In this document: piece by piece, positions 3,951 to 60,593 of the stretch
How positions within the stretch are numbered: the stretch's first letter is position 1
Layout of the letters: every line of letters starts with the position of its first letter
DNA from: Candidatus Xenobia bacterium
Lineage (GTDB): Bacteria > Vulcanimicrobiota > Xenobia > Xenobiales > QWHO01
Assembly: GCA_045863235.1 (NCBI GenBank)
Contig: BTUM01000015.1
Coordinates: 54,254 to 118,253, forward strand
DNA length: 64,000 nucleotides
Direction of reading: 5' to 3'
Program-made: the position numbers and the translations under genes
The notes under the pieces: generated by a model
Databases searched by the model: none
Told to the model about the DNA's origin: nothing
What the model saw: only the letters and a program-made list of their open reading frames with translations

Positions 3951-5129
3951 GTGAACGTCCAGATGACCGCCCATCGGCCCATTCCCGCCACCGGCGCTCC
4001 GCCTGCCCAGGCCCAGCAGCCGGCTCAGCCGCCCGCCGGCAAGCCCGATGTGGACGAGTTCCAGGCCAACAGCCCCAGCCGTCACGAGCGCACCTTCGAA
4101 ACCATTTATAACGGCGTGGGCACTCTGGGCGCCCTGACAGACATCGCCGCCAAGACGGGCCAGGTTCTCAGTCTGGCTGGCCCGCTGGCCGGGTTCCAGG
4201 CCGGACCCCTGGCCGGATCGGCTGCCCTGGTGGCCGGCACCTTCGACATCGCCCGCGGCGCCTCGGCCGCCAAGCAGGCCGCCGTCAATCGCGACGGCCT
4301 GGGATCGCTGGCCGGCAGCCTGCAAGTGGTGCAGGGCCTGGCCACCTATGCCGCCGCCCTGGCCCCCGCCTTCGGAGGCCCGGGCGTTGCCAGCGCCGTC
4401 GCCGCCGGTGTGGCTGTGGCCGCCTGGGCCGGACGCAAGGGCGTGGCCGCCTACGCCAAAGCCCAGGCTGCGCGCGCCGGCGAGGAGAAAGAAGCTTCTT
4501 CTCCGTCCTCCCAGCCCGCCGCTCCCTCCAACCCTTCCGTTCCGGGCAGCTCGCCCCAGCCGTTGGCTCTGGCCTCGACCCCTTCGGGCTCGACGGGCCT
4601 TGCGACCGCTGGCATCGAAGAGGCTGATCGCAGCCGCAAGTTCGAGCAGAGCTTCGCCTTCGTCAACTCGGTGGACCAGTTCTTCCGCGGCATCGGCGGC
4701 ATCGCTTCCTTTTGGAACGTCGCCGGCGGCGTCTTTTCCGGCAGCGCGAGCGGCGGACTGTTCGGCATCCCGGGCCTGGGCTTCATCGGCTCGGGCTACA
4801 CCGTGGCCACGGGTGTGGCCATGACCAAGCACTCGGCCATCAACCGCAACATGGACGGCACCATCGACGGCGCTCTGCAGACCGTCGGCGGTCTGGCCGC
4901 GGTGGCTACCTGCTTGCTCGGTCCGGCCGGAATGGCCCGCATTCCCGCCATCGTGGCTGCCGGTGCCTTCGTGGCCCGCACAGCCTATCAGATCTACTCC
5001 ACCTCCAAGCGGTTCGGTGACGGGGACGACAAAGAGAAGAAGAGCCTCCCTCTCATCGCCGCTCAGGCGGTCATGGACAAGGCCAACCCGTTCGCTGACT
5101 CGCGCGGGATGGAGAAGGCCGCCCTCTAG
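3951..5129 (+). CDS. Orphan Gly/Ala-rich hydrophobic protein with internal duplication
   Basis: GTG start after AAGGGG; two related halves (AKQAAVNRDGLGSLAGSLQVVQGLA vs TKHSAINRNMDGTIDGALQTVGGLA). Confidence 0.8.
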   Translation: MNVQMTAHRPIPATGAPPAQAQQPAQPPAGKPDVDEFQANSPSRHERTFETIYNGVGTLGALTDIAAKTGQVLSLAGPLAGFQAGPLAGSAALVAGTFDIARGASAAKQAAVNRDGLGSLAGSLQVVQGLATYAAALAPAFGGPGVASAVAAGVAVAAWAGRKGVAAYAKAQAARAGEEKEASSPSSQPAAPSNPSVPGSSPQPLALASTPSGSTGLATAGIEEADRSRKFEQSFAFVNSVDQFFRGIGGIASFWNVAGGVFSGSASGGLFGIPGLGFIGSGYTVATGVAMTKHSAINRNMDGTIDGALQTVGGLAAVATCLLGPAGMARIPAIVAAGAFVARTAYQIYSTSKRFGDGDDKEKKSLPLIAAQAVMDKANPFADSRGMEKAAL

Positions 5130-5133
5130 AACA

Positions 5134-5763
5134 GTGGGGGGGCTGTTCAAGCAGGCTGATCCGCGGAGCGTCCTGCCCCGGCTCTGCAAGCAGGCGCTGG
5201 AGACCGAGTCGGCCAGCACGCCCGCCATAGCCGAGGCGGCGGCCCGCGTTGGCCTGCCCGTGTCGGAGGCTCAGAAGGCAGCTCTGGACTATGAGCAGGC
5301 CAATGTGCTCTGGCTGGCTCTGATCCTGGAGAAGAAGGTCGACACCCGGGTGCTGGCCCCCCTGGCCATGCCTGCGACCGCCTCCGGCATCGACCTGATG
5401 AAAGACACGCCCCGCATCAACTGGTTGCGCAAGGGGGCTCGCTGGCTGTACGAGGCCAACGACGAGAAGGCTTTCGAGAAGCTTTGGGACATGGCCAGCG
5501 TGCCCTTTGAGTTCCCGCCCGACGGCGCATGGAGAGACTTCATCATGCAGTGGCTCATGCGCTTGTTCAACAACATCACCGATCTCGCTCCCGCGCCGCG
5601 TCGGCCGCTTCCGGTGGACATTCGCATCGAAACGGTGGGAAACAAGCTGGCGGCCCGTCTGTTCCCCGATCTGCCCCACCTGCCCGAGCGCGACAAGAAG
5701 GAGCTGAGCTCGGCCATCGGGGGCCCCATTCAGGCCATGCTGAAAGGCAAGATCAAGGTTTAG
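5134..5763 (+). CDS. Hypothetical protein
   Basis: GTG 4 nt after upstream stop; globular composition, typical codon bias. Confidence 0.7.
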   Translation: MGGLFKQADPRSVLPRLCKQALETESASTPAIAEAAARVGLPVSEAQKAALDYEQANVLWLALILEKKVDTRVLAPLAMPATASGIDLMKDTPRINWLRKGARWLYEANDEKAFEKLWDMASVPFEFPPDGAWRDFIMQWLMRLFNNITDLAPAPRRPLPVDIRIETVGNKLAARLFPDLPHLPERDKKELSSAIGGPIQAMLKGKIKV

Positions 5764-6448
5764 GCGCCAGAATGCGCCCGCAGTTGGGGCAGCGGTCCAG
5801 CTCATCTTTGGATAGTGCCCGCAGCTTGTGGTCGGGCAGTCCCATTTTGCAGCCCCCGCAGGTCCCTGACTCCACCGCCGCCACGGCGGTTCCCTTGGCG
5901 GCACGCAGCTTGGCGTAGAGGGCCACCGTGTGGTCGGGTAGACCGGCCACCAACTCGTTGCGAGTGCGACGCAGGCCCAGGAGGTTCTGGCGGATGACCT
6001 CCAGGCGCTGCCCGACCTCATGCTCGCGACTCTTGAGGTCTTGTTGAGCCTGCTCCACGCGGGCGAGTTGCTGGGCGCACTCGGCTTCGAGCAAGCCAAC
6101 CTCGTCGAGCAGCTCGAGCAGCTCGGTCTCCAGTCGGTCTTTGTCGCTCTTGACGCCGGCGATCTCGGCTTCGAGCGCGGCCAGTTGGGTCGGGCTGGTC
6201 ACCATACCGCCGTAGAGCTTCTGGTCCAGGGCCAGGGTCTTGCTCTCCAGGGCTCGTACATCTTGCTCGCCCTGCCGAAGCCGGTCTTGCAGCTGCTTGA
6301 GCCTCTTGACGCGAGCGGCCACCTCGTTTTGCTCGGCCTGCACCTGGGCCAGCGCACCGGCCACATCCAGCCCTCGCAGCTCTCTCTCGTATCGGTCGGC
6401 CTCCTGGTCGAGCCGCTCGAGCTCGAGCAGCCGGGCCGATAAGGTCAT
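5753..6448 (-). CDS. Coiled-coil plus C4 zinc-ribbon protein (DUF164/CT398-like)
   Basis: Long heptad region followed by CGGC..CPNCGRIL. Confidence 0.88.
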   Translation of the reverse strand: MTLSARLLELERLDQEADRYERELRGLDVAGALAQVQAEQNEVAARVKRLKQLQDRLRQGEQDVRALESKTLALDQKLYGGMVTSPTQLAALEAEIAGVKSDKDRLETELLELLDEVGLLEAECAQQLARVEQAQQDLKSREHEVGQRLEVIRQNLLGLRRTRNELVAGLPDHTVALYAKLRAAKGTAVAAVESGTCGGCKMGLPDHKLRALSKDELDRCPNCGRILAPKP

Positions 6449-7002
6449 TCGCTCACCATCTCGGGCCGGATGATCCCGATGTAGGGCAGCTGGCGATAAT
6501 GGTTGTTGTAGTCGAGCCCATAACCGATGACGAAATGGTCGTCGATGGTGAAGCCGAGATAGTCGATTTTCACCTCGACCTGACGCCGGGCCGGTTTCTC
6601 AAGCAGGGCGCAGACCTTCAGGCTGGCCGGTTTGCGCAGCGTGAGCGCGTTGAGGAGGTAATTCAGGGTCAGGCCCGTGTCCACGATGTCTTCCACCACC
6701 AGGACGTGGCGGTCTTCGATACGCTCTTCGAGGTCTTTGACGATCTTGACCACGCCCGAGCTCTTGGTGGAGGCGCCATAGGAAGAGATGCCCATGAAGT
6801 CGACCACCACGGGCACGTCCAGGGTGCGCATCAGGTCGGCCGTGAAGAGCATGGAGCCCTTGAGGATGCAGATCAGGGTCACCTCTTGCCCGGCGTGGTC
6901 GGCCGAGATCTGCTGACCCAACTCGCGAATGCGGCTCTGCAGGGTGTCGCTGTCGATCAGCACGCGCTGAACAGCCTCGTGCACGGTTCCCGACGGGCTC
7001 AT
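6445..7002 (-). CDS. hpt: Hypoxanthine phosphoribosyltransferase
   Basis: ILKGSMLFTADL, VLVVEDIVDTGLTL PRPP motif, FVIGYGLDY. Confidence 0.95.
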   Translation of the reverse strand: MSPSGTVHEAVQRVLIDSDTLQSRIRELGQQISADHAGQEVTLICILKGSMLFTADLMRTLDVPVVVDFMGISSYGASTKSSGVVKIVKDLEERIEDRHVLVVEDIVDTGLTLNYLLNALTLRKPASLKVCALLEKPARRQVEVKIDYLGFTIDDHFVIGYGLDYNNHYRQLPYIGIIRPEMVSE

Positions 7003-7280
7003 CTGAGGTAGAGCGGCATCCAGGCCAGCAGCGAGGCCTGGCTCAGCACCAGGAAGGAGGCTGCCAGGGCCGAGCGGCGCCAGGACGATTCCAGGTTCTT
7101 CTGAAAACCGGCTGAGAGAAGCAGGAAGGAAACCAGCTGCAGCAACAAGACTGTGCCGTCTCGTCGGGTGAAGCCAACGGCTGCCAGCTGCTCGGGCCAC
7201 AGGAACACGGCCGCGAAGCCCGTGACCAGGGCGAAGAAGGCGGCCAGATTGCACCACAGGGTGAACACTTTCCAGCTCAT
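6999..7280 (-). CDS. Small membrane protein
   Basis: Three hydrophobic segments; ATGA overlap with hpt. Confidence 0.6.
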   Translation of the reverse strand: MSWKVFTLWCNLAAFFALVTGFAAVFLWPEQLAAVGFTRRDGTVLLLQLVSFLLLSAGFQKNLESSWRRSALAASFLVLSQASLLAWMPLYLR

Positions 7281-7348
7281 GGTGCCGGCTTGCTTCCTGG
7301 CGCAGCCCTGGTTTACCTGCTGTTTGTTAGAATATAATTCAAGCACGC

Positions 7349-7387
7349 TTTCAATGCCCTTTCAGCCCGCCCGGGCAGACTGCGAGG
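7349..7387 (+). promoter_or_regulatory. Box A: TTTCAA-N5-TTTCAG-N10-CAGACT-N6-ATG (leaderless geometry)
   Basis: Identical spacing at 19345 and 31156. Confidence 0.6.
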
Positions 7388-8596
<1,209 letters not shown>

Positions 8597-8666
8597 CCTG
8601 CCGTGAATCGTAGACCGGGTAGCCAGGGTCAGAGGTCCACGGCAGGTGCACCCAGAAACTTTCAGG

Positions 8667-10289
8667 ATGGCAAGGCGACGGGGCGTCGGCCTGGGAACCA
8701 CCCTGATCGTGACCGCGATCGTGGCCCTGCTGGGTTTTGCCCTGGCCGGCGCCAGCGTGACCCACATCAACCTGATGACCCACACCGGCAACGCCTCGAT
8801 GGCCCTCGATCTGGCCCGAAGCTCGGTGCACGTGGCACTCGGTCACCTGTTCACCGACAAGGACTTCCGCCAGACGGTGACCGTCAATGGTCCGGGCGGA
8901 GCGGTCGGACAACTCACCTTCGACCCTGCTCAGGCGACCAGCCTCGGGATCCCGCTGTCGGAGAACAATCTGACCGGGGGCAGCTCCAAACTGGCCGCCG
9001 ACAACCAGATGGTGCCCGAGGAAGGGGCTTACCTGGTGGGGGTGGCCACCGTGCGGGGGGTGACCCGCCGGGTACGAGCGGTCGTGCACCTGCCGCCCTT
9101 CCCGTTCGCGGCGGCCTCGGACGGGCCGATCGTGTCTCCTGGCAGCCTGGTCGTGGGCTCGCTAAGACCGGGGCAGGATCCCAATTCCCCCCCCAACCGC
9201 CTGCTGCCGGCTGACCTGCTGACCAATGACACCGGGCTGGCAGCCCTGACTCTGGGGCCGGCTACCAACGTGCGCGGCGACCTGCGCTCGGGCGGCGGGG
9301 TGAGCCTGGATCCGGGCGTTCAGGTCGGGGGCCGGGTGCTGACCAGTCAGGCCCCTCGTCTGGTTCCCGTCATGAGCGTGACCGGACTGGACCCGGATCA
9401 GCCTGCACCCATCGGTCATCCGTTCCTGGTGCTCCAATCGAGCTACTCGGGCACGACCTTTACCGGAACTCTGCGGGGGTCCGGCACGGTGACTGTCAAC
9501 GGGCCCCTCAAGCTGGACCGGGCTCTGGTGTACATCGATGGCAACCTGGAGATCAACGGGGGCGTGGACGGTACGGGTGTGCTGGTGACGACCGGCAACC
9601 TGACAGTGAATGGACAGGCCAGCGTGGTGGCCGACAGCCGGGTGGCCATGCTCAGCCAGGGGAAGATCACCCTGGCAGGCAACGGTCCGGTGGGCTCGAG
9701 CATCAAGGGGCTGGTTTACGCTGAGGGCGGGGTGGACGCCAAACAGCTCAAGCTGCAGGGGGCTCTGGTTTCGCGCAATCAGCCTCCGGTTCAGCTGGAT
9801 CGGGCTCGCTTGCTCAATGACGGAGGGCTCCTGCAACCACCGTTCAACACCCTGCCTTACGTGACGCCCGTGCCCGAGGTTCGCTATATCCACGGGACTG
9901 CTGCCAGTCCGGGTCCGATGCTCAAGACTGCGCCGAGCCCCCCTGCGAATCCGGTCAACGGGACCAGGTTCGGCTACTCCAAAGTTGAGGCCACCTTCCT
10001 CCCCGATGGAAGGGTGCAGGTAAACGCTCGGAGCTTCAGTCGGACTTACCGGGTCCCTCCCGGGGGATGGGTGGATGACCCTGGCTACCCGATGGATTCC
10101 TCGCCCAGCCTGAATAGTCTGGCGTCTCTTGGACATCGGTCTGATCCACTGAGAGACAGCCTGATTGACCCCCCCTTGCCCGGGACGGGTGGCTCGGCAC
10201 CCACTTACACCCTGGTGCTCGACCCGGCCGAGCTCTTGCCCACGAAGGATCGCGCGCGCATCCTGATCTGGCGCGAAGGAGCTCAGTAG
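8667..10289 (+). CDS. PilX/TadG-like pilus-associated protein with Gly-rich beta repeats
   Basis: RRRG-VGLGTTLIV hydrophobic class III-like N-terminus, A..LA.S helix, YIDGNL/TTGNL/GLVYAEG repeats. Confidence 0.65.
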   Translation: MARRRGVGLGTTLIVTAIVALLGFALAGASVTHINLMTHTGNASMALDLARSSVHVALGHLFTDKDFRQTVTVNGPGGAVGQLTFDPAQATSLGIPLSENNLTGGSSKLAADNQMVPEEGAYLVGVATVRGVTRRVRAVVHLPPFPFAAASDGPIVSPGSLVVGSLRPGQDPNSPPNRLLPADLLTNDTGLAALTLGPATNVRGDLRSGGGVSLDPGVQVGGRVLTSQAPRLVPVMSVTGLDPDQPAPIGHPFLVLQSSYSGTTFTGTLRGSGTVTVNGPLKLDRALVYIDGNLEINGGVDGTGVLVTTGNLTVNGQASVVADSRVAMLSQGKITLAGNGPVGSSIKGLVYAEGGVDAKQLKLQGALVSRNQPPVQLDRARLLNDGGLLQPPFNTLPYVTPVPEVRYIHGTAASPGPMLKTAPSPPANPVNGTRFGYSKVEATFLPDGRVQVNARSFSRTYRVPPGGWVDDPGYPMDSSPSLNSLASLGHRSDPLRDSLIDPPLPGTGGSAPTYTLVLDPAELLPTKDRARILIWREGAQ

Positions 10290-10978
10290 CGCACGTTGCG
10301 CAGCATCAGGCGGCGGGTCAGCTCGAAGCTCTCCTCTCCGAGCTTGAGGACCAGCTGAATGCGGGGCGGATCCACGCTCAGATCCACCGTGAAGCTCTCC
10401 ACGTGGCCGGCCAGCACCGCTCCCCCCCCGGCCAGGGTGGCAAGCTCGGTGGCGATAGGCGCGGCGGGCGGCGGGGGGTTGGGCTGCTCGAAGAAGGGCT
10501 CGTCGGGCTGGGGCAGGCGTCCCACCGAGGGCGGCTCGGGGGGCCACTGGCGACGATGGAGCTTGCGCTCCACCGGGTCGTAGCGATACAAGAACAGGGT
10601 CGTGCTCCACTCTTGCCCGCCTGTGCTGGTGACCGTGGTCAGAGGCTGGATCGAGAGCAGGGTGGAGTCGGTGGCGGCGTTGGTGGGCGGCACCAGGTTG
10701 ATTCCGGCCCGGGGCGCGCTGGAGAGGTCGGCGGCCAGGCGGTCCATGGCCACCTGGGCCAGCTGTTGCAGCTCGATCTGGGTGGCTCCCCGCCGTGTGC
10801 CCCGGCCCATGGGCACGAGTACCTGGGCCAAAAGCGTGAGCAAGATCATTAAGAGGGCCATGGCCATCAACGTCTCGAGTAGACCGAAGGCCCGTCGGCG
10901 CCGCGCGTGGCACTCTCCACCACTGAGCGCGGTGCTCAAGCGCGTTCTGATTCTGCGCGGGACTCTAGATTCGCACAT
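10283..10978 (-). CDS. Prepilin-like (PilW/PulJ-type) protein; start approximate
   Basis: RRRA-FGLLETLMAMALL cleavage/methylation motif with E5. Confidence 0.75.
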   Translation of the reverse strand: MCESRVPRRIRTRLSTALSGGECHARRRRAFGLLETLMAMALLMILLTLLAQVLVPMGRGTRRGATQIELQQLAQVAMDRLAADLSSAPRAGINLVPPTNAATDSTLLSIQPLTTVTSTGGQEWSTTLFLYRYDPVERKLHRRQWPPEPPSVGRLPQPDEPFFEQPNPPPPAAPIATELATLAGGGAVLAGHVESFTVDLSVDPPRIQLVLKLGEESFELTRRLMLRNVRY

Positions 10979-11357
10979 CGCACCGCACCGCTTCGCGAAG
11001 GATTTCCCGCTGCACCTGATGATCCATCCATACTACTCGCACCCTCACGCCCACCAGCAGGCCCGGGTCCACCCCGGCCCGGTTCACGGTGAAGAACTGC
11101 ACGGAGGGCTGGAAGGTGGCTCCCCGTCCGGGCACGGCTGGCAGGGCCTGGGCCGGCCCGGGCACCAGCTGGCTGAAGGGGCGCGTCAGCTGCTCCTCCA
11201 GGATCGAGTCAGCCAGGGCGTTGGCCTGCAGCCGCTGGCCGGAGACCCGTACCGCCGCCACCGAGGTGGGGTAGAGGTTGAAGATCAGTAATACCACCAG
11301 GGTGAGGATGGCAAAGCACAAAATGGCTTCGGCCAGCGAGGCTCCGCGCCGCCTCAC
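10965..11357 (-). CDS. Prepilin-like (PilV/PulI-type) protein
   Basis: RRRG-ASLAEAILCFAIL motif with E5; GTGA overlap with upstream gene. Confidence 0.75.
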   Translation of the reverse strand: MRRRGASLAEAILCFAILTLVVLLIFNLYPTSVAAVRVSGQRLQANALADSILEEQLTRPFSQLVPGPAQALPAVPGRGATFQPSVQFFTVNRAGVDPGLLVGVRVRVVWMDHQVQREILREAVRCDVRI

Positions 11358-19331: not shown

Positions 19332-19344
19332 CCGGTCCACAGTC

Positions 19345-19383
19345 TTTGAGGGCTCTTTGAGCCTGCTTCGTTAGACTCCAGGG
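19345..19383 (+). promoter_or_regulatory. Box A: TTTGAG-N5-TTTGAG-N10-TAGACT-N6-ATG
   Basis: Perfect TCTTTGAG direct repeat at 11-bp period. Confidence 0.65.
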
Positions 19384-21546
19384 ATGGACCTCACCCCCGT
19401 CCGTCTGTCCGGTCTGCCCGTCGCCCGCCCTCAGGGCACGGTGGCTTCGTCCCTGCCCGTGGGAAACCCCGACCAGGTGGCCCCGGCGCGCACTCTTGAG
19501 AAGCTGGGCAAGCCCCGAGCGGCTCGGCCCTCCTGGCTGCGCCGTCTGGCCGGGGCTGCCGTCTGGACGGCCGTGGGCGTCAGTCTGGCGGCCGGCTCGC
19601 TGGGGGTCATCGGGTATGTGGGCAATCCGGCTCTGCGGGAGCAGCCGGCCGTGTCGGTGCTGGCAGATCAGAATCCGGCAGCCACCCCCACCACTCCCGG
19701 GCCGGCCCCGCGGCCACTCCCGCCGCCTTCGATGCGCGTGGCCGTCGACCGCGTGGCGGTGGTGATCCCCGGCTCCACCCTCTCGCGCATCGCCGGCCAG
19801 GCCCAGCAGAGCCCGCTGGCCCACAAGTTCTTGCAGGAGCGTGCCCTGGAGGCTCAGCAGTCGCTCAGCCAGGTGTTGTCCGAGCAGCAGGCTCCCGAGG
19901 GCCACATTTTGCTCGACGCCCGCCTGCCTCTCCCTACCGGCGAGCGCGCCTTTTTCCACGTGGGGCCGGTGAATCTGCCCTCGCTGGGGGTCAGCAACTT
20001 CGAGTTTCGGGAGGTTCCCCTGGTGGTCGGCTACCGGGTCAGCCCGCTGGCGCCATCCCTCAAGGTGGGGCTGGAGACCTTCCAGGCCGAGGCTCCTCCG
20101 CGCCCCGCCTCGCTGGGGGCGGAAGGAGTCTACCTGGGCTCGGTGCGCGTTTCGGTGAGCCCCCGGCAGAGCAGCCTGCCGGTGGAGGGCAGCCTCAGCT
20201 TGAGCCTGGATCAGGATGGCTCGGCCCTGCGAGAGCAACTCGGCGAGTTGCAGGGCAAACTGAAGGCGGTTGCGCCGGGGTCGCCCCGGGCGCTCCAGCT
20301 CGAGAAGCTGATCGCTCGTCACCAGCACCTGCTCGAGCAGGGTCGTAGCCTGCCCGACCGCGAGCTGGTGCGAGCCGCCTTCGGAGATCAGCAAGTGGCC
20401 TTCAAGGCCAGCCTCGAGGCCGGTCCGGATGCCCTGGCGCGGGCCACCTACCACGTCTGGATGGGGCGGGACGTGACCGGGGACGGTCGCTCCGACCTGC
20501 ATCTCACCAGCGAAAATGACTTTAGCCGTCTGGAAGGGCTCAAGGTCGAGCTCCACGAGTTGCACGGCCAGGGTCAGCGACCCGACGGCTTCCTGCCCGG
20601 CCTGGTTCACGAGCAGGTCGAGAAAGCCTTTACCCAGGCGATTCGAAAGGCGCTTCCGGACGCAACCGACAGTCTCCGCCGGGCCGCCATCGAGCGGCTG
20701 GGAGCCGAGCTCGAGAAGGGCAACCCCTGGGTGGCCGAGCAGGGCAACCAGGCCCTGGCCCGCGGTTACGCCGAAGGGGTGGAGATGCAGGTGCCACCCC
20801 TGGCCGGAACGGGCGGAAGGGAGCTGCACTATGGCGTGGGCAAGGTACAGGTTGGGGCTCAGGGGATGCTGGTGGAGATGGGTGCGCCTTCCAAGGCCAG
20901 CCAGCAGGAGGTGAGCCTGCCCTTCAGCCTCAAGCCGGGCGAGGTCGGCTTGCGTCTGCCGGGTGAGGAGCTGAATGCGCGCCTGCGCGACACGATCGAC
21001 TGGCAGAGCCTGCTCAACCAGATGCGGAAGGCGCAGGGACTGAAGGAGCTGAGCTTCGGGCCGGGCGGCCAGCCTCGCTTCATCTATGACCGGACCAGCG
21101 GCAAGCCGGCCATCACCTTCGACATTCGGGCCAGAAGCGAGGGGGCCGTCTTCTTCGATGCCAAGGTCAATACGGGCGTGGTGGTGCCGCTCGAGCTGAA
21201 GGCCCACCAGGGAAAGCTTGAAGTCAAGCCTGTCGCCGACGGAGTGCGGATGACCAATCCGAAAGAGCCGCTGCCTTTCGATCCGACCGATCTGTTGCCC
21301 ACTCGACTGCTGTCCAACCTGATCGCCAGTATCGTGGCCCAGTCACAGGCTTCCAACAGTCTGGCCGGTCAGTTGAAGAATGGCTTGAGCGTCAGCCTGG
21401 AGGATAAGGGGCTGGATTTTCTGGAGGTCAGCGCCCAGCCCAGGGGCCAGGGCGCTCCCGACCTGGCTGTCAAGCTGAAATCGTCTCGGGAAACCTCCGA
21501 GTTCTTGTTGCGGACGATGCTGGAAGGGGTTAAAACAACCCGCTGA
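19384..21546 (+). CDS. Large orphan protein (720 aa) with disordered N-terminus and single TM anchor
   Basis: Long ORF with typical codon bias; TM at about aa 55-80. Confidence 0.8.
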   Translation: MDLTPVRLSGLPVARPQGTVASSLPVGNPDQVAPARTLEKLGKPRAARPSWLRRLAGAAVWTAVGVSLAAGSLGVIGYVGNPALREQPAVSVLADQNPAATPTTPGPAPRPLPPPSMRVAVDRVAVVIPGSTLSRIAGQAQQSPLAHKFLQERALEAQQSLSQVLSEQQAPEGHILLDARLPLPTGERAFFHVGPVNLPSLGVSNFEFREVPLVVGYRVSPLAPSLKVGLETFQAEAPPRPASLGAEGVYLGSVRVSVSPRQSSLPVEGSLSLSLDQDGSALREQLGELQGKLKAVAPGSPRALQLEKLIARHQHLLEQGRSLPDRELVRAAFGDQQVAFKASLEAGPDALARATYHVWMGRDVTGDGRSDLHLTSENDFSRLEGLKVELHELHGQGQRPDGFLPGLVHEQVEKAFTQAIRKALPDATDSLRRAAIERLGAELEKGNPWVAEQGNQALARGYAEGVEMQVPPLAGTGGRELHYGVGKVQVGAQGMLVEMGAPSKASQQEVSLPFSLKPGEVGLRLPGEELNARLRDTIDWQSLLNQMRKAQGLKELSFGPGGQPRFIYDRTSGKPAITFDIRARSEGAVFFDAKVNTGVVVPLELKAHQGKLEVKPVADGVRMTNPKEPLPFDPTDLLPTRLLSNLIASIVAQSQASNSLAGQLKNGLSVSLEDKGLDFLEVSAQPRGQGAPDLAVKLKSSRETSEFLLRTMLEGVKTTR

Positions 21547-29094: not shown

Positions 29095-30438
29095 ATGCAG
29101 GTGCAGGCTCAGACCGTCTTGAGGCTGCTCCTGGTCGAAGACAACGAACTGGACGCCGAGCTGGTGGTGGCCACCCTCGAGCGCTCCGGCTACGAAGTCC
29201 ATGCCCACCGGGTGGATACCCTGGAAGGCCTGCGCCTGGCATGGCATTCCGGCGGCTGGGACGCCATTTTGTTCGATCACAGCCTGCCCGGTTTCACCGG
29301 CCAGCAGGCTCTGGCACTGGTGCGCGAGAGCGGCGAAGATGTGCCCTTCCTGGTCTTGTCAGGCACCATCGGCGAGACCACCGCTGTCGAGTACATGCGG
29401 GCCGGGGCCCACGACTACCTGATGAAAGACAACCTGACCCGGCTGGGGCCGGCGCTCGAGCGCGAGCTGCAGGAGGCCCGCAACCGCCGCACCAGCCGCC
29501 TGGCCGAGCGCTCGCATCGCGAGGGACAGCTGCGTTACCAGCGCATCGTCGAGGCCGCCGCGGAAGGCATCTGGATCGTGGACCGGCGCGCCCGGGTGAC
29601 CTTTGCCAACCAGAGACTGGCCGAGATTCTCGGATGCCCCGTGGAGCAACTGATTCATCGCCCGCTGTTTCGATTCGTGGCAGCCGAGTCGCGCGAGCTG
29701 GCCCGGGGGATGTTCCGCGAGCCCGGACCGGCTCCCGAGCAGTTCGAGCTGGCGCTGGAGCGGCTTGATGGTGAGGTGGTCTGGGCTCTGGTCTCGGTCA
29801 GCGGCATCCTGGACGCCGAAGACCGCTGGACGGCTACCCTTGGCATGGTCACCGACATCACCGAGCGGCGCCGGCTCGAGCAACAACTGCTGACGGCCGA
29901 GCAGGAGAAGCGCTGGTTTTACCGCGAGGTGTTGCTGGCCGTGACCCAGGGCCGATTGCACCTGTGCGAGGCCAGCGAGATACCCATGGAGGGCGAGCTG
30001 CAGCTTTCCTTGACGCTGGTGGAGCCCGAAAATTACGCTTGTCTGCGCCGGGAGATGCGGACCCTGGGCGCAAAGGTGGGCATGCCTTCGGACAGCCTGG
30101 AGGAGCTGTTGCTGGCCGCTGGTGAGGCGGTTACCAACGCCATCAAGCACGGTGTGGAAGGATGTTGCGAGGTGCGCCTGGCCGGGCAGCGCATGGTGGC
30201 GCGCATTTTCGACGGTGGTCCGGGCATCCGCCCCGAAGACCTGCCCGCCAGCATCCTCAAGCCCGGCTTCTCCACCAAGGTCTCGCTGGGCATGGGCTTC
30301 TCGCTGATGTTGGAGCTGTGCGACGTGATCTGGCTGGCTTCCGGCCCCACCGGGACGGTGGTGCAGCTGGAGAAGAACCTGTCGGCCGAAGAGCAGGAGG
30401 AGATGATGCTGGAGGCTCTGCTGGAGCGATTCAGCTGA
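29095..30438 (+). CDS. Receiver-PAS-HATPase (RsbW/anti-sigma-kinase type) protein
   Basis: LLLVEDN..FDHSLPG..YLMK receiver; PAS; EAVTNAIKHG, DGGPGI, GMGF with no HisKA His box. Confidence 0.82.
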   Translation: MQVQAQTVLRLLLVEDNELDAELVVATLERSGYEVHAHRVDTLEGLRLAWHSGGWDAILFDHSLPGFTGQQALALVRESGEDVPFLVLSGTIGETTAVEYMRAGAHDYLMKDNLTRLGPALERELQEARNRRTSRLAERSHREGQLRYQRIVEAAAEGIWIVDRRARVTFANQRLAEILGCPVEQLIHRPLFRFVAAESRELARGMFREPGPAPEQFELALERLDGEVVWALVSVSGILDAEDRWTATLGMVTDITERRRLEQQLLTAEQEKRWFYREVLLAVTQGRLHLCEASEIPMEGELQLSLTLVEPENYACLRREMRTLGAKVGMPSDSLEELLLAAGEAVTNAIKHGVEGCCEVRLAGQRMVARIFDGGPGIRPEDLPASILKPGFSTKVSLGMGFSLMLELCDVIWLASGPTGTVVQLEKNLSAEEQEEMMLEALLERFS

Positions 30439-31117
30439 GCGAGCGCCGGCGAGGGACCAGGACGCCGCCGACCCGAACTGCCGAGGGGGTCTCCTGAATC
30501 GAGCCCCCCTGGGTGCTCTGGGCGAGTGAGGACACCTCCTGGGCATGCTCGGACATGGTGACCACCTGGGCCAGCACCTTGAGCGCTTGCTCGGCTCGCT
30601 GCTCGTGGTCGCTCAGGCTGTCGAGCTGCAGGCGGGACTCGGAGAGGTAGGAGCGGGTGGTTTCGTCCAGAGGCATCCGGGAGAGGGCTTCCAGTACTGT
30701 CGTTCCGGCCGTGGCCCCGTCGAAGGGGTAAGGGGGATAGCAGGCGTTCACCATCTCGATGCCCATGCGGGCAAAGGCACTGGGGCTGGCCGCAGCCGCT
30801 GACTCCAGGGCGATGGTGGCGAGATCGCGGCGCGAGGTGGGGAACATGGTCTTGGGAGCGGCCTGGGCCGCCACCTGAATGGCCGCCGGAGCCTCGCTCT
30901 GCCTGGCCAGGTACTCCAGCACCGCAAGTCCGGCCGCGCCCCCTTCCACATGCGAGACAGGCGAAGGGGGAATGGCTTCCAGCAGGCTCAGGCTGAACTC
31001 CACCAGGTCCTGGCTGGTGCTCTGGCGGGCCGCCTTCTTGATGGCCGCCTGCGACTCCGGCTCGACATTCGAGCGAACCAGCCGGGTGATCGCGCGGCGC
31101 TGAACGGGATCGATCAT
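30431..31117 (-). CDS. Orphan helical protein with FlgM-like N-terminus (QDLVEFS)
   Basis: ATG 6 nt after Box A-linked -10; C-terminal GGSIQETPSAVRVGGVLVPRR. Confidence 0.7.
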   Translation of the reverse strand: MIDPVQRRAITRLVRSNVEPESQAAIKKAARQSTSQDLVEFSLSLLEAIPPSPVSHVEGGAAGLAVLEYLARQSEAPAAIQVAAQAAPKTMFPTSRRDLATIALESAAAASPSAFARMGIEMVNACYPPYPFDGATAGTTVLEALSRMPLDETTRSYLSESRLQLDSLSDHEQRAEQALKVLAQVVTMSEHAQEVSSLAQSTQGGSIQETPSAVRVGGVLVPRRRSLS

Positions 31118-31156
31118 GCCTTGATTCTGGCAGCTACGGATGAAAGTTGCCTGAAA
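31118..31156 (-). promoter_or_regulatory. Box A: TTTCAG-N5-TTTCAT-N10-CAGAAT-N6-ATG
   Basis: Same spacing as 7349 and 19345; partly inside the 3' end of the upstream kinase gene. Confidence 0.6.
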
Positions 31157-32111
31157 TCGCGCAGTGGAAGGTGGCTCCCTGATCGGGACTGCCCTCGGCT
31201 TTGACGCTGCCACCATGGCGGCGCAGGATTCGCTGGACCGTGGCCAGCCCCACCCCGGTCCCAGGAAAGTCACGCTCGTGGTGCAGGCGTTGGAAGGGAG
31301 TGAACAGGCGATGGGCCTGGTCGGGAGAAAAGCCGGCCCCGTTGTCGCGTACGAAGAAACTCTCCCCGCTCCGACCGCCCAGCTCGATGCGAGGCTGCTC
31401 TCGGCGCGAGCTGAACTTGAGGGCGTTGTCGAGCAGGTGGCGCAGAGCCACCCGCAACAGGTCTCGGTCACCCTGGAGGGTGAGATCGCTTTGGATGCTC
31501 ACACTGGCCGGAGCGCAACCCAGCTCGTCCACGATCTCCCGGGCCAGCGCGGTCAGATCCACCCTCTGGATGCGAAGGGGGGCCCGAGAGACCCTCGAGA
31601 GCTCGAGCAGGCTGCTGACGAGTCGTTCGAGTCGCTCCAGGCCGAGGGTCACGTTGTCGAGATACTTGCGATTCTTCTCGCTCAGCTCCTGATCGCCGGT
31701 CAGCACGAGCTGCAGGAAGCCCTCGGCCGCCCGCAGGGGGGCGCGCAGGTCGTGGGAGACCGAGTAGACGATGGACTCCAGCTCGGATTCGAGCTGCTTG
31801 ACCTCGCGGGCCCTGCGGGCGAGCTCCAAGAGCAGCCCCACCCTGGTTCTCAGGATAGAAGGGTCGGCAGGCCAGGGCAAAGAGTCCGCCGCTGCGAGCT
31901 CAAAGCTTTCGGCCTGCGAGGTCAGCACCAGGATGGGTGTCAGCCCGCCCCTGCGCAGCGCAAGCGCCCGCTCGAGCATGGACGCCGGCAGCACGATGAG
32001 GTCGAATTCTCCCTCCGTTTGCGTTTCCGGGGCCAGGTCGGCGGCCACCACCTCCAGGTCGGGCAACAGTTCTCCCAGCTCGAGGTTGCCCAGGACCAGC
32101 ACACGGCTCAT
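31134..32111 (-). CDS. Cytoplasmic histidine kinase with degenerate N-terminal receiver
   Basis: YSVSHDLRAPLR H-box, NALKFS, DNGAGF, LFTPFQRLH, GTGVGLA. Confidence 0.9.
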   Translation of the reverse strand: MSRVLVLGNLELGELLPDLEVVAADLAPETQTEGEFDLIVLPASMLERALALRRGGLTPILVLTSQAESFELAAADSLPWPADPSILRTRVGLLLELARRAREVKQLESELESIVYSVSHDLRAPLRAAEGFLQLVLTGDQELSEKNRKYLDNVTLGLERLERLVSSLLELSRVSRAPLRIQRVDLTALAREIVDELGCAPASVSIQSDLTLQGDRDLLRVALRHLLDNALKFSSRREQPRIELGGRSGESFFVRDNGAGFSPDQAHRLFTPFQRLHHERDFPGTGVGLATVQRILRRHGGSVKAEGSPDQGATFHCAISGNFHP

Positions 32112-41497: not shown

Positions 41498-41504
41498 CCG
41501 TACG

Positions 41505-41548
41505 GTAACAAGCCGTCAACCCGGGACCGAGCCCGGCCGGGTTATCCT
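41505..41548 (+). promoter_or_regulatory. Box B GTAAC-aagccg-TCAAC, then N22, then -10 TATCCT
   Basis: Recurrent motif; lies upstream of an orphan small ORF. Confidence 0.55.
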
Positions 41549-41583: not shown

Positions 41584-41808
41584 ATGCAGATCGCAAACCT
41601 GGCTACCTTTCCTCAGGCGGCGGCCAAACAACAAAAGAGCAGCCGCCCCGAGCCCGGGCCAGATGACACTTCCGACCCCGACTTTGGGGATAACCGGCGC
41701 AACGACGACGGACCTGACTCGGTTTACGACCCCGACTTCGGCGGACGCGGCGGGGGCGACACCTACAGCGGCCCGGACGGAACCTACAGCTACGATCCCT
41801 ATCACTGA
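41584..41808 (+). CDS. 74-aa acidic D/G/P-rich orphan
   Basis: GGAGGAG RBS; MQIAN start; DPDFG twice, YDP twice. Confidence 0.65.
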   Translation: MQIANLATFPQAAAKQQKSSRPEPGPDDTSDPDFGDNRRNDDGPDSVYDPDFGGRGGGDTYSGPDGTYSYDPYH

Positions 41809-47561: not shown

Positions 47562-48224
47562 CTAGCTCTGGCTGATGGCGAAGCGTTGCTGCGGGAAGTG
47601 ACCCTGCAGTACGAAGCCGTCGCCGGTGGGGGAGAGCTCGAAGTCCTGGAAGGCGTAGTGCCCGTCGATGGTGATCCGCCCGTCGGAATGGCGGGTCAGG
47701 CTGAAGGACTGCTCGGGGAGGTTGCTTTCCACCAGCGTGGTATCGCCTTGCTGGGTCAGCCGGAAGGTTTCACCATCCTCCCAGTCGCTGCGCACCTCGG
47801 CTGCATCGCCCTGACGCGTGGCCGTCCAGGCCCGCCCGGAGAACATGCTGTCCACTCGCAGCGTGGTGCCGTCATCACGAATGGTGAAGTCGTTGAGGTC
47901 TTCCTGGCAATCAGCCACGGTCAGGTTTCCCTGCTTCTCCAGGCGATAGTCCTGGAAGTGGTGCAGGCCGTCCACCTCGGTGGCCTGGCCGTCCGAGATC
48001 ACCGTGAAGTCGCGCTGAGGGAAGGTACCGTCCTCCAGATGACCGATGATGGTGGTCTGCCCTGGCTGCTCACGGTGGCCCACCAGCAAAGCTTTGCCGT
48101 CCAGGCTGATACCCAGGCCCGGGGCCAGCTCGATTCCGACTGTAGCGGTGTGCAGGCTGGGTGGGAAGGGAAGTTGGGGGTCTAGATATCCTGTTGGCAC
48201 TCCGGCCATCAATCGCACGCTCAT
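47562..48224 (-). CDS. Orphan with about 8 tandem ~20-aa beta-hairpin repeats
   Basis: Repeats such as TEVDGLHHFQDYRL / ITIDGHYAFQDFEL / FVLQGHFPQQRFAI. Confidence 0.75.
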   Translation of the reverse strand: MSVRLMAGVPTGYLDPQLPFPPSLHTATVGIELAPGLGISLDGKALLVGHREQPGQTTIIGHLEDGTFPQRDFTVISDGQATEVDGLHHFQDYRLEKQGNLTVADCQEDLNDFTIRDDGTTLRVDSMFSGRAWTATRQGDAAEVRSDWEDGETFRLTQQGDTTLVESNLPEQSFSLTRHSDGRITIDGHYAFQDFELSPTGDGFVLQGHFPQQRFAISQS

Positions 48225-48273
48225 TGAGAACTCCCTGTGCAGAATCGTCTGCCGGCACTTTGCGCCATGAGCG

Positions 48274-48300
48274 GTTGATCGGATGTTACCGGATCGTAAC
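48274..48300 (-). promoter_or_regulatory. Box B triple: GTTAC-gatccg-GTAAC-atccga-TCAAC
   Basis: 11-bp periodic repeat upstream of orphan 48224; overlaps the TAA of the upstream gene; -10 weak. Confidence 0.5.
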
Positions 48301-50760: not shown

Positions 50761-51102
50761 TTAAGCTGACTGGCGGGCGGCTTCCCGCTCTTCCTTGGCC
50801 TTGTTGTGCTCGATGGCCCAGGCTGTGGCGCCGAGCGCGGCGCCCGCCGCCAGGCCAACCATGGTGCAGATCGGGAAGGCGTTGGCCCAGCCCAGGCTGG
50901 CCTTGAGGGCCCAGCCCACGGTCCCGGCCACCGAGCCCACGCCCAGGGCGGTGACTCCCATCTTGCCCCACAGGGAGTTCTTCTTCTTGGTCTCTTCCGA
51001 GCGCTTGAACTTGTCCAGCTCGCTGGTGGGAGCGGTCTGGGTGGAGGCCACCGTGCCGTAGCCGCGCAAACCGATACCGGGGTTGAAGGTCTGGATGGTC
51101 AT
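50761..51102 (-). CDS. Small orphan with disordered N-terminus and Gly-zipper-like double hydrophobic hairpin
   Basis: AGGAGG RBS; MTIQTF..ELDKF, then two Gly-rich hydrophobic helices. Confidence 0.72.
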   Translation of the reverse strand: MTIQTFNPGIGLRGYGTVASTQTAPTSELDKFKRSEETKKKNSLWGKMGVTALGVGSVAGTVGWALKASLGWANAFPICTMVGLAAGAALGATAWAIEHNKAKEEREAARQSA

Positions 51103-51130: not shown

Positions 51131-51173
51131 AGTGTAGCTTACCCTGGCGCTCAGGTCGTTACCGGAGGATTAA
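51131..51173 (-). promoter_or_regulatory. Box B TTAAT-cctccg-GTAAC, then N21, then -10 TACACT
   Basis: Same spacing as 3843; first half-site overlaps the TAA of the upstream gene. Confidence 0.55.
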
Positions 51174-52021
51174 CAGTCCTCCAAGGCTTGCTCCCCCTCC
51201 CAGCGGTAGAAGCCCCGACCCGTTTTCTTGCCCAGGTAGCCGGCCCGAACCAGCCGCCGCAAGAGCGGGGGAGGGGTGAACTGGGGACCGATCTCCCGCG
51301 TGAGGTGCTCGGCGATGGCCAGGCGAACGTCCAGGCCCACCAGGTCAGTCAGCTTCAGGGGACCCATGGGGTGGCGATAGCCCAGCTCCATGGCCCGGTC
51401 GATGTCGGCCGCGCTGGCTACCTGGCTCTCCACCATGCGGATGGCCTCCATGCCAAGCAAGATCCCGAGGCGCGAGGTGGCAAAACCGGCCACGTCGCGC
51501 ACCACCACGGGCGTCTTGCCCAGGCGCAAAGCCAGCTCCAAGGCTCGGTCGAGGGTCTGGGGAGAGGTCTGCTCGGCCCGCACCACCTCGAGCAGCGCCA
51601 TGACGGGAGCGGGGTTGAAGAAGTGCAGCCCGATGACGCGCTCGGGCGCCTGGCAGGCGGAAGCGATCTCGGTCAGCGAGAGCGAGGAGGTGTTGCTACC
51701 CAGCAGCGTTGCCTCGCTGCGCCGGGAGAGCTCGCCCAGGACCGACTTCTTCAGCTCCAGCTCCTCATAGACCGCCTCGACCACCAGGTCAGCCGGCGGT
51801 CCCAGGCCCTGGGCCGTCTGCAACCTCGCCAGCACGGGCTCCGCCGTGTCGAGTTTGCCCCTTTGCACAGCCCTACCCAGCGAGGCCCGCACCTTCTCGA
51901 GTCCAGCTTCGGCCAGCGCCAGCTCGCGGTCGCAGAGCGTGGTCTGGAGCCCGGCTCGGGCCAGCACCTCGGCGATTCCGGCCCCCATGGTGCCAGCCCC
52001 GATCACAACAGCAGTTTTCAT
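51170..52021 (-). CDS. 3-hydroxyacyl(butyryl)-CoA dehydrogenase
   Basis: VIGAGTMGAGIA, EAVYE, SNTSSL, GLHFFNP, PMGPL..DLVGLD. Confidence 0.93.
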   Translation of the reverse strand: MKTAVVIGAGTMGAGIAEVLARAGLQTTLCDRELALAEAGLEKVRASLGRAVQRGKLDTAEPVLARLQTAQGLGPPADLVVEAVYEELELKKSVLGELSRRSEATLLGSNTSSLSLTEIASACQAPERVIGLHFFNPAPVMALLEVVRAEQTSPQTLDRALELALRLGKTPVVVRDVAGFATSRLGILLGMEAIRMVESQVASAADIDRAMELGYRHPMGPLKLTDLVGLDVRLAIAEHLTREIGPQFTPPPLLRRLVRAGYLGKKTGRGFYRWEGEQALEDC

Positions 52022-56083: not shown

Positions 56084-56105
56084 CCTCCAAGAGGCTTCGG
56101 ACGCA

Positions 56106-56137: not shown

Positions 56138-56157
56138 CGATCCTCCGATTGTCTAGT

Positions 56158-56676
56158 CTACATCATGCCGGGCAGGCCGCCTCCGAGGACGCCACCCATC
56201 ATGTTCCACACCTCGCCCTTCAGCTCGATGAAGCTGTTGCCGGGATTCTTGCGGTCGACGTGCATCAACTGGGTGCCCGGCATCATGCCGCCCAGCACGG
56301 TGATCGAGGTGATCGAGTCGGGTGAGTAGTCGGTGACGGTGACGGTGTTCATCATCGGATTCTCCATCACGGTAACCGAGGAGCCCTGGTTTCGATCCCC
56401 CTCGAAGGTCGTGGTGGGCGGATCGATCTTGACGGGCATCTCCATGCCCGGCGGCAGGGCCAGCGCCTGCTGCACCACTCCTGGACGTCCCCTGGCCAGG
56501 TCCGTGGGGCCCTCGTCGATCTGCTTGAGCTGATCCATGGATCCGGAGAGCAGGGAATCGATCTGGCTCGCCTGCTCGGCCGGCATATTCTGTCGAGTAG
56601 CGCCTTCGCCCAGCGAACGGTTGTTGCGAATACTGGCGATGTCCGACTGGGCCCAGCCGGGAACTGCGATGGACAT
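56158..56676 (-). CDS. Orphan protein (MSIAVP start), beta-rich C-terminal half
   Basis: GGGGAGG RBS; Box A half-site TTTCAG-N10-TAAGCT upstream (56707-56728). Confidence 0.72.
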   Translation of the reverse strand: MSIAVPGWAQSDIASIRNNRSLGEGATRQNMPAEQASQIDSLLSGSMDQLKQIDEGPTDLARGRPGVVQQALALPPGMEMPVKIDPPTTTFEGDRNQGSSVTVMENPMMNTVTVTDYSPDSITSITVLGGMMPGTQLMHVDRKNPGNSFIELKGEVWNMMGGVLGGGLPGMM

Positions 56677-56752
56677 TGTGAGCAACCTCCCCTGATTTCT
56701 TCTTGCAGCTTACCGAGGAGGCCTGAAAATTCTCTGCCCCGAACCGCACGGC

Positions 56753-57496: not shown

Positions 57497-57537
57497 GCCG
57501 GCAGGGAGCCCCGCCCGCTGGCCAGAACTCAGCTCCC

Positions 57538-58359: not shown

Positions 58360-58414
58360 AGCGCCCCCTCCCGGGAGCGCAGGCGGGGGCCTTCCCGCTG
58401 CGCGACGCCAACAG

Positions 58415-59734: not shown

Positions 59735-59834
59735 TATCGGAAGGGGATGTTGCCATCTCCGAGAGGCGACGGACTTGAGCAAGTGCTCGACTCGAGGTCG
59801 GAGCGCGCCCGCCCGCTCGAGGTTTCGACCGACT

Positions 59835-59876
59835 TTTCAGGTTTTTTTCAGTCCGATCTTTTAAGACATCTTTCAG
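59835..59876 (+). promoter_or_regulatory. Tandem Box A pairs: TTTCAG-N5-TTTCAG and TTTAAG-N5-TTTCAG
   Basis: Four half-sites at 59835, 59846, 59860 and 59871 upstream of orphan 59934. Confidence 0.55.
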
Positions 59877-59933
59877 GTGAACAGAGGATCCCGCTCTGGC
59901 AGGATTCTCGAAACGTACCACCAGGAGAACCAA

Positions 59934-60593
59934 GTGGCCATACAGATCACACAGACGGCCTTCAAAGCGAGCTCTCTTCCCAGCCGGGCCTCGCTGGAAA
60001 ACGACGGTTGGACGCCTCGTTTCGACGAGCCCGTGGCTGCCAGTCAGCCGATCCGCGCCATGACGGCTGCCCCGGTCGTCAGCAGCCTGGCCCAGCTGGT
60101 CCAGGATGCTGCCCCGGCGACCCGGGACGCGGTCAGTTTGAACCAGGCGGTCGACCTCGACCCCAACGACGACGACCTGCGCGGCGTCTTCGCCCAGATG
60201 GCGATGGACCGACAGACTCGCGTGGCGGCTCGGGCCCAGATCGCCCAGACCGTTCAGCAAGATTGGCAGAACACCCAGGAAGAGGTTCGCGCCAACGAGC
60301 AGATGCGTCAGGCCAACATGTCCAACATGTGGCGCTCGGCCTTCAATCCCTATGGCGGCGGAATGATGCCCCCGATGGGACCGATGCCGATGACCCCGGG
60401 AATGCCCGGGATGACGCCTGGGATGACGCCCGGGATGGTGCCCCAGACCGGTTTGGCGGGAGCATATCCGCCTCCTCCGGGAACCCCTTACAACGGGACG
60501 TTCACGGCCTACCCGGCCGGTCCGGGACCCTTTCCGACCCAGACCACCTACCCGGCCCCGCCCGGGACGGTGGGGGCTCAGACCTACTACTGA
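59934..60593 (+). CDS. Orphan: disordered N-terminus, Gln/Met-rich helix, Pro/Gly/Met repeat tail
   Basis: AGGAGA RBS, GTG start; DAVSL motif; MTPG repeats. Confidence 0.75.
   Translation: MAIQITQTAFKASSLPSRASLENDGWTPRFDEPVAASQPIRAMTAAPVVSSLAQLVQDAAPATRDAVSLNQAVDLDPNDDDLRGVFAQMAMDRQTRVAARAQIAQTVQQDWQNTQEEVRANEQMRQANMSNMWRSAFNPYGGGMMPPMGPMPMTPGMPGMTPGMTPGMVPQTGLAGAYPPPPGTPYNGTFTAYPAGPGPFPTQTTYPAPPGTVGAQTYY

Follow-up and report, generated by a model that had tools for sequence, protein, structure and literature searches.

The 64,000-nucleotide stretch of DNA analyzed here (the window; positions 54,254-118,253 of contig C15 of a Candidatus Xenobia genome, phylum Vulcanimicrobiota) carries eight dispersed orphan open reading frames (ORFs), which an earlier reading of the sequence, the original prediction, had taken for a co-regulated repertoire of proteins exported by a non-Sec route. 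We find that the eight belong to a genome-wide gene set recognizable by two promoter elements, Box A and Box B, and by a compositional N-terminal tag. As judged from sequence, most of them are likely substrates of a flagellum-derived type III exporter with no detectable motor or flagellin, encoded elsewhere in the same genome; we assign this reading a probability of about 0.65.

The host genome comprises 8.36 Mb on 166 contigs (66% G+C, completeness 97.6%), on which 7,047 genes were called with a Markov-model script, their start codons being predictions. Class-wide counts refer to 44 Xenobia genomes. The orphans are named after the window position of their start codon (Table 1).

Two promoter boxes mark a dispersed gene set

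Unbiased, genome-wide counts of upstream words reveal two direct repeats with an 11-bp period. The box definitions were absent from the original prediction, and both matrices were rebuilt from genes outside the window. Their consensus sequences are cTTTCAGnnTTtTTTCAG for Box B (in short, TTTCAG-N5-TTTCAG) and tGTTAACAattTGTTAACAa for Box A (in short, GTTAACA-type). Among 4,912 upstream regions, 298 exceed 12 bits for Box B and 301 for Box A, compared to 29.5 and 0 in dinucleotide shuffles; the exact Box B pattern has 56 occurrences, and none remain when it is reversed or mis-spaced. Together, the boxes mark 590 of the 7,047 called genes, in 436 families, which bears out the proposal of a co-regulated, dispersed gene set. 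Within the class, the exact Box B is common in families f1 and f2.

A -10 element of the form TAnnnT lies exactly 10 nt downstream of 172 of 301 Box B sites and 19-20 nt downstream of 104 of 289 Box A sites. Since 126 Box B sites start 40-43 nt before the gene start, leaderless mRNAs are predicted for these genes. We take 11-bp direct repeats at a fixed distance from the -10 element to resemble activation by PhoB/OmpR proteins. The genome yields 26 Trans_reg_C matches, including 13 strong OmpR-type domains, none of which could be tied to Box A or Box B, and a crude regulator pattern likewise found nothing.

As predicted, each of the eight orphans carries a box above 8 bits, the lowest score being that of the half site of 56676 (8.5 bits). 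This count is partly circular because the earlier reader picked boxed genes; the genome-wide association is not, nor is the finding that only one of the 42 other window genes with an upstream region of their own passes 8 bits (the citrate transporter gene at 7388). Box B also gave 147 reverse-strand hits, but 106 of the 117 reverse-only hits in divergent gene pairs belong to the partner gene. No third promoter motif was found among 101 tagged, box-less genes. Further enriched upstream dyads are AGGA-N16-CGAA/AGAA, possibly an alternative-sigma promoter, and ATGA-N6-TCAT / TGAT-N4-ATCA.

An N-terminal tag accompanies the boxes

All eight ORFs were recovered with the N-termini given in the original prediction, and none matches Pfam or NCBIfam. 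The N-terminal features claimed for most or several of them were confirmed as well: six begin with M-x-I/V, the exceptions being 19384 and 31117, and six contain D-x-V/F within the first 70 residues (at 35, 30, 37, 45, 30, and 65). The latter motif is weak by itself, being present in residues 15-45 of 435 of 2,935 box-less genes. The asserted lack of a Sec signal stood for the set and needs qualification for 19384, where a hydrophobic segment from residue 55 may be a signal anchor, such that this protein may just be membrane-anchored. The weakest member of the set is 48224, which is boxed but has an atypical N-terminus.

For genome-wide statistics, we compared proteins of at least 110 residues encoded outside the window, 274 of them with Box B, 261 with Box A and 2,935 box-less. 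M-x-I/V starts occur in 101, 84 and 359 of these, respectively. Residues 6-30 consist to at least one half of S/T/P/Q/A in 85, 97 and 198 proteins, while the same test at residues 76-100 yields 14, 26 and 104. The S/T/P/Q/A-rich tracts ascribed to the orphans are thus found genome-wide, and their composition is as would be expected for type III substrates. The motif [DE]-x-[VIF]-x-[LIF]-S (D-x-V-x-L-S type) is found in residues 10-60 of 21, 14 and 37 proteins, and in residues 60-110 of 1, 2 and 36. Hydrophobic, signal-peptide-like N-termini are depleted (15 of 274 Box B and 21 of 261 Box A proteins versus 696 of 2,935 box-less ones). The tag effect persists among leaderless genes (42 of 78 versus 11 of 96); leaderless starts are therefore not the cause of the signal.

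Paralogue pairs point in the same direction. A box-less paralogue exists for 123 of 529 boxed proteins. In 52 of these 123 pairs, the N-terminus of the boxed protein is longer by at least 20 residues, and in nine it is shorter, compared to 31 and 38 among 219 control pairs; some partners in the list are tagged themselves or mis-started. The C-terminus shows no excess (12 longer versus 22 shorter). A Box A gene at C64:27894-28691 carries a 75-residue extension over its paralogue, whose N-terminus resembles that of an adenylate kinase; it would be another tagged energy enzyme.

A tag classifier with labels derived from DNA alone, trained outside the window, places seven of the orphans at ranks 1-7 among 67 window genes, and 48224 at rank 22. 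The trait of type III substrates, an uncleaved, disordered, S/T/P-rich N-terminus with no Sec peptide, is seen in the composition, in the predicted disorder of 3951 and in the extensions.

Orthologues of 3951 were identified in 18 of the 44 class genomes; at 37-43% identity, Box A and the tag pattern are preserved in them, and the sequence of the tag itself has drifted. All of its 11 database homologues with an organism name come from the same phylum. In the structure model, residues 1-42 are predicted to be disordered and are followed by two Gly/Ala-rich helical repeats (predicted local distance difference test score 60); 3951 is a candidate membrane-active substrate. Fold searches with this model gave no match at E 0.001 (best Z 6.5), which is not evidence of a new fold. 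ORF 19384 has one paralogue in the genome and, in the ESM Atlas, leads below 0.9 with a template modelling score below 0.3 by query, among them a weak lipid-transfer (BPI/LBP) lead. Two of the three paralogues of 56676 have a strong Box B (23 bits). RNA runs, as assembled contigs, give a weak hint: contigs of X1 and X5 cover gene 59934 with nearly exact limits, and X1 contigs also cover 56676 and 51102, but run X2 looks uniform, and depth cannot rank genes.

A flagellar-type export machine outside the window

The original prediction had noted that the window holds no export apparatus and advised a search of the genome, which located one at two loci, on C27 and C74. The refuting condition named there, a genome free of type III or flagellar export genes, thus does not hold. 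The first (C27:60720-79252) comprises flgB, flgC, fliE, fliF, fliG, fliH, fliI, fliJ, SLT (a lytic transglycosylase gene), fliK, an flgE/F/G-like gene, fliM, two copies of fliN, fliO, fliP, two copies of fliQ, fliR, flhB, and flhA; the second encodes FlgF, FlgG, a rod-binding protein and the start of a fliA-like gene. The gate proteins, FliI, FliF, FliE, FlgB, and FlgC exceed the flagellar cut-offs, and FlhA scores 814.6 bits as FlhA (cut-off 772) versus 616.5 bits as SctV (cut-off 692). Abby & Rocha 2012 (PMC3459982) assign, as marker genes, flgB, flgC, and fliE to flagella and sctC to injectisomes; the three flagellum-specific rod genes are all present here. Flagellin, MotB, FlgD, FlgH, and FliD were not found in the 97.6%-complete genome, MotA not having been searched. 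Its gene content sets the machine apart from working flagella and from canonical injectisomes alike; it would work like a type III secretion system.

FlhA was placed in two quick trees, built without bootstrap, of 58 and 26 sequences; they include only four SctV rows and no Myxococcales or Chlamydia row, and FlhA copies outside Xenobia were labelled by gene context. The machine FlhAs of the phylum form a single clade, with Shimodaira-Hasegawa-like approximate likelihood ratio test (SH-aLRT) values of 100 and 99 in the two trees. This clade is separate from the other, motile FlhAs of the phylum (SH-aLRT 99) and from the four SctVs (100), and joins Bacillota and motile copies at 93.

Several peculiarities of these loci may be recorded here. 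Families f14 and f18 contain a strongly diverged member of the FlhA clade in the same gene order, with no pilin detected, and some genomes have a third, fast-evolving FlhA copy inside the non-motile clade. Five stand-alone FlhA cytoplasmic-domain proteins, two fused to FliG-N and one to an FlhB-C-like domain, are encoded on C80, C3, C1, C106, and C107 of the host genome and are possible substrate-sorting adaptors; genus g3 has up to 19 FlhA-family matches per genome. The duplicated fliQ and fliN lie, with a second partial fliG, at C27:64796-67535 and C27:74318-76130. An aminotransferase-like and a methionine-synthase-like gene (C27:57483-60701, named by inspection) separate flhA from a conserved gene for a 104-residue protein; the pair also flanks flhA in two relatives.

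Linkage of the gene set to the machine and candidate cargo

Within the host genome, Box A is found upstream of flgB (24.5 bits), of the flgE-like gene, of the C74 operon, of the candidate pilin gene described below (first copy) and of its 473-codon neighbour. Among relatives, it stands before 8 of 11 flgE-like genes (0.4 expected by shuffling) and 40 of 113 pilin hits (6.4 expected), compared to 1 of 36 flhA and 3 of 33 flhB genes as controls. The presence of Box A at machine genes, seen across the phylum, thus ties the gene set to the export machine. Along this line, nine machine parts expected to be exported themselves (by our choice the rod proteins, FliE, FliK, the rod-binding protein and the transglycosylase) outscore 18 others on the tag model, with medians of 0.31 versus 0.04 (p = 3e-4).

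To survey the cargo, we sampled 60 of 217 boxed and tagged proteins at random, taking one per family; Pfam recognizes 22 of them, and the other 38 have no match. The matches comprise hydrolases (subtilase, clostripain, C39 peptidase, LysM with lytic transglycosylase, endonuclease I), enzymes of lipid and sugar metabolism (acyltransferase, lipid desaturase, glycosyltransferase, an acyl-CoA-synthetase-like AMP-binding enzyme, a glycerophosphate-oxidase-like protein), and a mixed group of a thioredoxin-reductase-like protein, pyruvate kinase, adenosine deaminase, a SecA-like ATPase and beta-propellers. A house copy with neither box nor tag accompanies five of these proteins, namely pyruvate kinase, adenosine deaminase, the reductase, the AMP-binding enzyme and SecA. 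In the examples inspected, Box A mostly accompanies proteases and the transglycosylase, and Box B lipid or energy enzymes.

A candidate filament protein

Behind flhA and the 104-residue protein gene lie three identical genes for an 81-residue protein, whose domain recurs at the end of the 473-residue neighbour, a protein that itself matches no family. The 81-residue family occurs in 38 of the 44 class genomes and in 43 of 121 genomes of the phylum; within the class, it is multicopy and 60-100% conserved. Its ESM Atlas neighbours include HrpA clusters at 0.91 and 0.90, and the Pfam model HrpA_pilin matches 4 of 29 members, weakly (best E 0.0012). A search of PDB sequences with the pilin profile gave one chance-level match, and pilin-like matches outside the phylum lie in unrelated gene contexts. 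The sequence thus weakly resembles an HrpA-like pilin. As a separate observation, the domain is C-terminal in VgrG-like, RHS, and TIR-trypsin-TPR proteins and internal in an autotransporter, and is found in Acidobacteriota records in places remote from export clusters; possibly, it is a self-assembling module that is portable between proteins.

Proposed mechanism and alternative explanations

Under the export reading, two activators, probably of the OmpR/PhoB type, would switch on two waves of expression via Box A and Box B. Wave A would supply machine genes, proteases and the lytic transglycosylase, and wave B lipid and energy enzymes, often from leaderless mRNAs. The unfolded tag would be recognized by the FlhA/FlhB/FliPQR gate and the FliHIJ ATPase, and the rod (FlgBCFG, FliE, and the short FlgE/F/G-like protein) would pass substrates through the wall. 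The multicopy 81-residue protein may polymerize into an Hrp-pilin-like conduit, its length set by FliK, and the cargo would most likely act on or in a prey or host cell. Injection through such a pilus is possible, and we put it forward with less than even confidence. Equally tentative is the complete picture, in which a duplicated flagellar basal body of the Vulcanimicrobiota became a second injectisome, independently of the SctV systems. It would have retained the rod, acquired an Hrp-like pilus and dispensed with flagellin, hook cap and motor. In Xenobia with large genomes, it would send 200-300 tagged proteins, some of them re-tagged housekeeping enzymes, into cells of the prey or host in two timed waves.

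A number of results weigh against export, or against its injection variant, and they are given here along with the rival explanations they favour. The first rival shares the export claim and differs as to filament and target: the machine, comparable to the basal bodies of Buchnera or Lysobacter, would export tagged proteins only to the periplasm, the surface or the medium, with no injection conduit, the 81-residue protein being a cap, a plug or an abundant secreted product. We regard this as somewhat unlikely. In its favour, no outer-membrane channel was identified: there is no FlgH and no L-ring, and the three secretin hits of the genome map to a type II secretion system (T2SS) locus, a type IV pilus locus and one short stand-alone gene, with none at the two machine loci. 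AlphaFold renders the 81-residue protein as one long helix (predicted template modelling score 0.36) with no needle hairpin; its nearest Atlas clusters have HrpA pilin in 23-24% of members, and its domain also occurs in the VgrG-like, RHS, TIR-TPR, and autotransporter proteins mentioned above. Genus g3 (0 of 6; 0 of 5) and families f7, f9, f11, f12, f14, f18, and f19 yielded no member of the 81-residue family. Subtilases, clostripains and endonuclease I, moreover, are able to act extracellularly. On the other hand, the tagged pyruvate kinase, adenosine deaminase, and thioredoxin-reductase-, acyl-CoA-synthetase- and SecA-like copies need cytoplasmic substrates, and the conservation and copy number of the 81-residue protein, the domain shared with its 473-residue neighbour and the retention of FliK speak for a conduit.

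The second rival denies export of the orphans. The boxes would define a stress or life-stage regulon of the OmpR type (e.g., phosphate or starvation), the tracts would be neutral disorder of young genes or an address for another compartment, and the machine, though co-regulated, would carry its own parts only. The classifier reaches an area under the curve of 0.81 on the N-terminus and still 0.69 from residue 50 onward; hence some of what it detects is disorder of a general kind, shared by orphans. The tag is a matter of composition, and 316 of the 590 boxed genes score above 0.3 (204 above 0.5), which leaves about half of them without it. The citrate transporter (window 7348-8596) has a strong Box B and a leaderless start with no tag, and is probably a boxed gene that is not exported; the 13 strong OmpR-type domains with no tie to a box also fit this rival. 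It does not explain, however, why extensions are confined to the N-terminus and occur in old enzyme families, with box and tag both missing from the house copies, why the enrichment of D-x-V-x-L-S is seen at residues 10-60 but not further on, at 60-110, why 3951 orthologues at about 40% identity keep box and tag features, and why signal peptides are depleted. Altogether, we consider it improbable.

Three further points count against the export reading. Start errors of the Markov-model gene caller bias the counts of N-terminal extensions; the reduced gut genomes of genus g5 keep the machine, with the exact Box B almost absent; and a sister position of the machine FlhA clade to SctV is not rejected by the approximately unbiased test (p-AU 0.10; 0.40 with the motile copies).

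A decaying flagellum, or an assembly gap that hides flagellin and motor while the orphans leave via the T2SS, the type VI secretion system (T6SS), Tad or not at all, is suggested by the 166-contig assembly, by flagellin in 10 of the 44 class genomes (which are also the 10 with FliD and with strong MotB hits) and by the T2SS and type IV pili of the genome, but is already largely refuted and very improbable: flagellin and FliD are jointly absent from the other 34 genomes, most flagellated members have a second FlhA from another clade beside motB or fliD, the FlhA family is present in all 44 genomes in frames free of internal stops, gene order is kept in other classes of the phylum, the Sec/Tat signals that T2SS substrates need are depleted in the boxed set, and neither a T6SS sheath nor Tad CpaB was found in the genome.

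Features of the window

The positions of the orphans and boxes are collected in Table 1. A search of the window for direct and inverted repeats revealed no relevant repeat. Elsewhere in the window, three type IV pilin- or pseudopilin-like genes lie at 8646-11357, one frame with a weak N-methylation motif; one operon at 15690-18021 combines an extracytoplasmic function (ECF) sigma factor, a zinc-finger anti-sigma factor and a MucB/RseB-like gene; and a leucine-rich-repeat protein is encoded at 33166-33882, adjoining a beta-lactamase-family gene.

Table 1. Orphan ORFs and promoter boxes of the window (ranks are those of the tag model among 67 genes; -10, the -10 element and its distance downstream of the box).
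Feature	Position	Strand	Remarks
3951 ORF	3951..5129	+	392 aa, GTG start; rank 1
19384 ORF	19384..21546	+	720 aa; rank 7
31117 ORF	30431..31117	-	228 aa; rank 6
41584 ORF	41584..41808	+	74 aa, acidic, low-complexity; rank 2
48224 ORF	47562..48224	-	220 aa, repetitive; rank 22
51102 ORF	50761..51102	-	113 aa, tag followed by Gly-rich hydrophobic stretch; rank 5
56676 ORF	56158..56676	-	172 aa; rank 4
59934 ORF	59934..60593	+	219 aa, GTG start, Pro/Gly/Met-rich C-terminus; rank 3
Box A of 3951	3841..3860	+	12.6 bits; -10 TAGGAT, 19 nt
Box B of 19384	19344..19361	+	18.8 bits; -10 TAGACT, 10 nt; predicted leaderless
Box B of 31117	31140..31157	-	17.0 bits; 40 nt from start; predicted leaderless
Box A of 41584	41503..41522	+	19.5 bits; -10 TATCCT, 20 nt
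Box A of 48224	48272..48291	-	13.5 bits
Box A of 51102	51156..51175	-	14.4 bits; -10 TACACT, 19 nt
Box B half site of 56676	56723..56740	-	8.5 bits; -10 TAAGCT, 10 nt
Box B of 59934	59834..59851	+	27.1 bits
Box B of citrate transporter	7348..7365	+	18.9 bits

Comparison with known systems

For the phylum itself, Paoli et al. (PMC9259500) predict motile, predatory Eudoremicrobiaceae, and a TXSScan row in the supplement reads 'T3SS_putative, no_decision'; Yabe et al. (PMC9758169) describe a cultured member, Vulcanimicrobium alpinus WC8-2, that is diderm and flagellin-less. A search of the literature on secretion or flagella in the phylum (Eremiobacterota/Vulcanimicrobiota/WPS-2, Xenobia), with subscription papers and bioRxiv supplements outside its range, found no description of the system. 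Annotation tools label the machine as a flagellum, which may explain why it was passed over.

Plant-inducible promoter (PIP) and hrp boxes mark the dispersed effector regulons of Hrp injectisomes. The Xenobia set resembles these in its dispersed genes under a shared promoter box, its compositional N-terminal signal and its lead to a small helical pilin (HrpA; PMC3459982). In contrast to Hrp systems, the export parts score as flagellar and not as Sct, there is no SctC, FlhA falls outside the four SctV sequences tested, and the candidate cargo includes tagged housekeeping enzymes.

FlgM carries a motif of the D-x-V-x-[IL]-S type, and the disordered N-termini of the tagged set contain similar text, as the original prediction had observed. 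Beyond this, the FlgM likeness is not supported, and neither is a sigma-28 link: the genome has no FlgM match (0 at E 0.1), none of the eight orphans has an anti-sigma domain, the boxes precede a TAnnnT -10 element and not a sigma-28 promoter, and a sigma-28-like pattern occurs in 0 of the 101 tagged, box-less genes.

Repurposed flagellar exporters, in Buchnera and elsewhere, are noted by Abby & Rocha (PMC3459982), Buchnera retaining a flagellar gate and basal body in a non-motile cell with a proposed role in secreting other proteins. The Xenobia machine differs in being a separate paralogous system that is phylum-wide and, in 10 of the 44 relatives, is found side by side with a complete flagellum. 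It also has a candidate filament subunit of its own, and hundreds of tagged genes are linked to it.

According to Fulano 2020 (PMC7688988), Lysobacter enzymogenes OH11, a predator with no functional flagellin, uses its flagellar type III system for the FliI/FlhB-dependent secretion of antagonistic proteins, a protease among them. The Lysobacter system is the remnant of a sole flagellum, with FlgD present and three named substrates. In Xenobia, FlgD was not found, and the machine represents an old, dedicated clade with a large regulon.

The needle-less system (T3SS*) of the Myxococcales likewise has no motor and no secretin of its own and takes part in bacterial prey lysis in Myxococcus (PMC3459982, PMC12428579). 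In their account, this intermediate lacks FlgBCDEK, FliEG, FlgH, MotAB, and a needle subunit, and works with a Tad/Kil pilus. Unlike it, the Xenobia machine, in whose genome Tad CpaB was not found, keeps FlgBC, FliE, FliG, FliM, and FliF and has a candidate pilin.

How a flagellum turns into an injectisome has been seen mainly in the Myxococcales system, where the rod is already lost. The orphans of the boxed set are likely cargo of a motorless flagellum-type exporter, which would represent an undescribed path from a flagellum to a protein-delivery device. If so, a machine that kept rod, MS ring and switch without the motility parts would represent either a parallel origin or an intermediate that is still extant. 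Its cargo set would be among the largest proposed for a type III system, with a promoter code that lists the candidates, and would provide a concrete lifestyle mechanism for an uncultured, widespread class.

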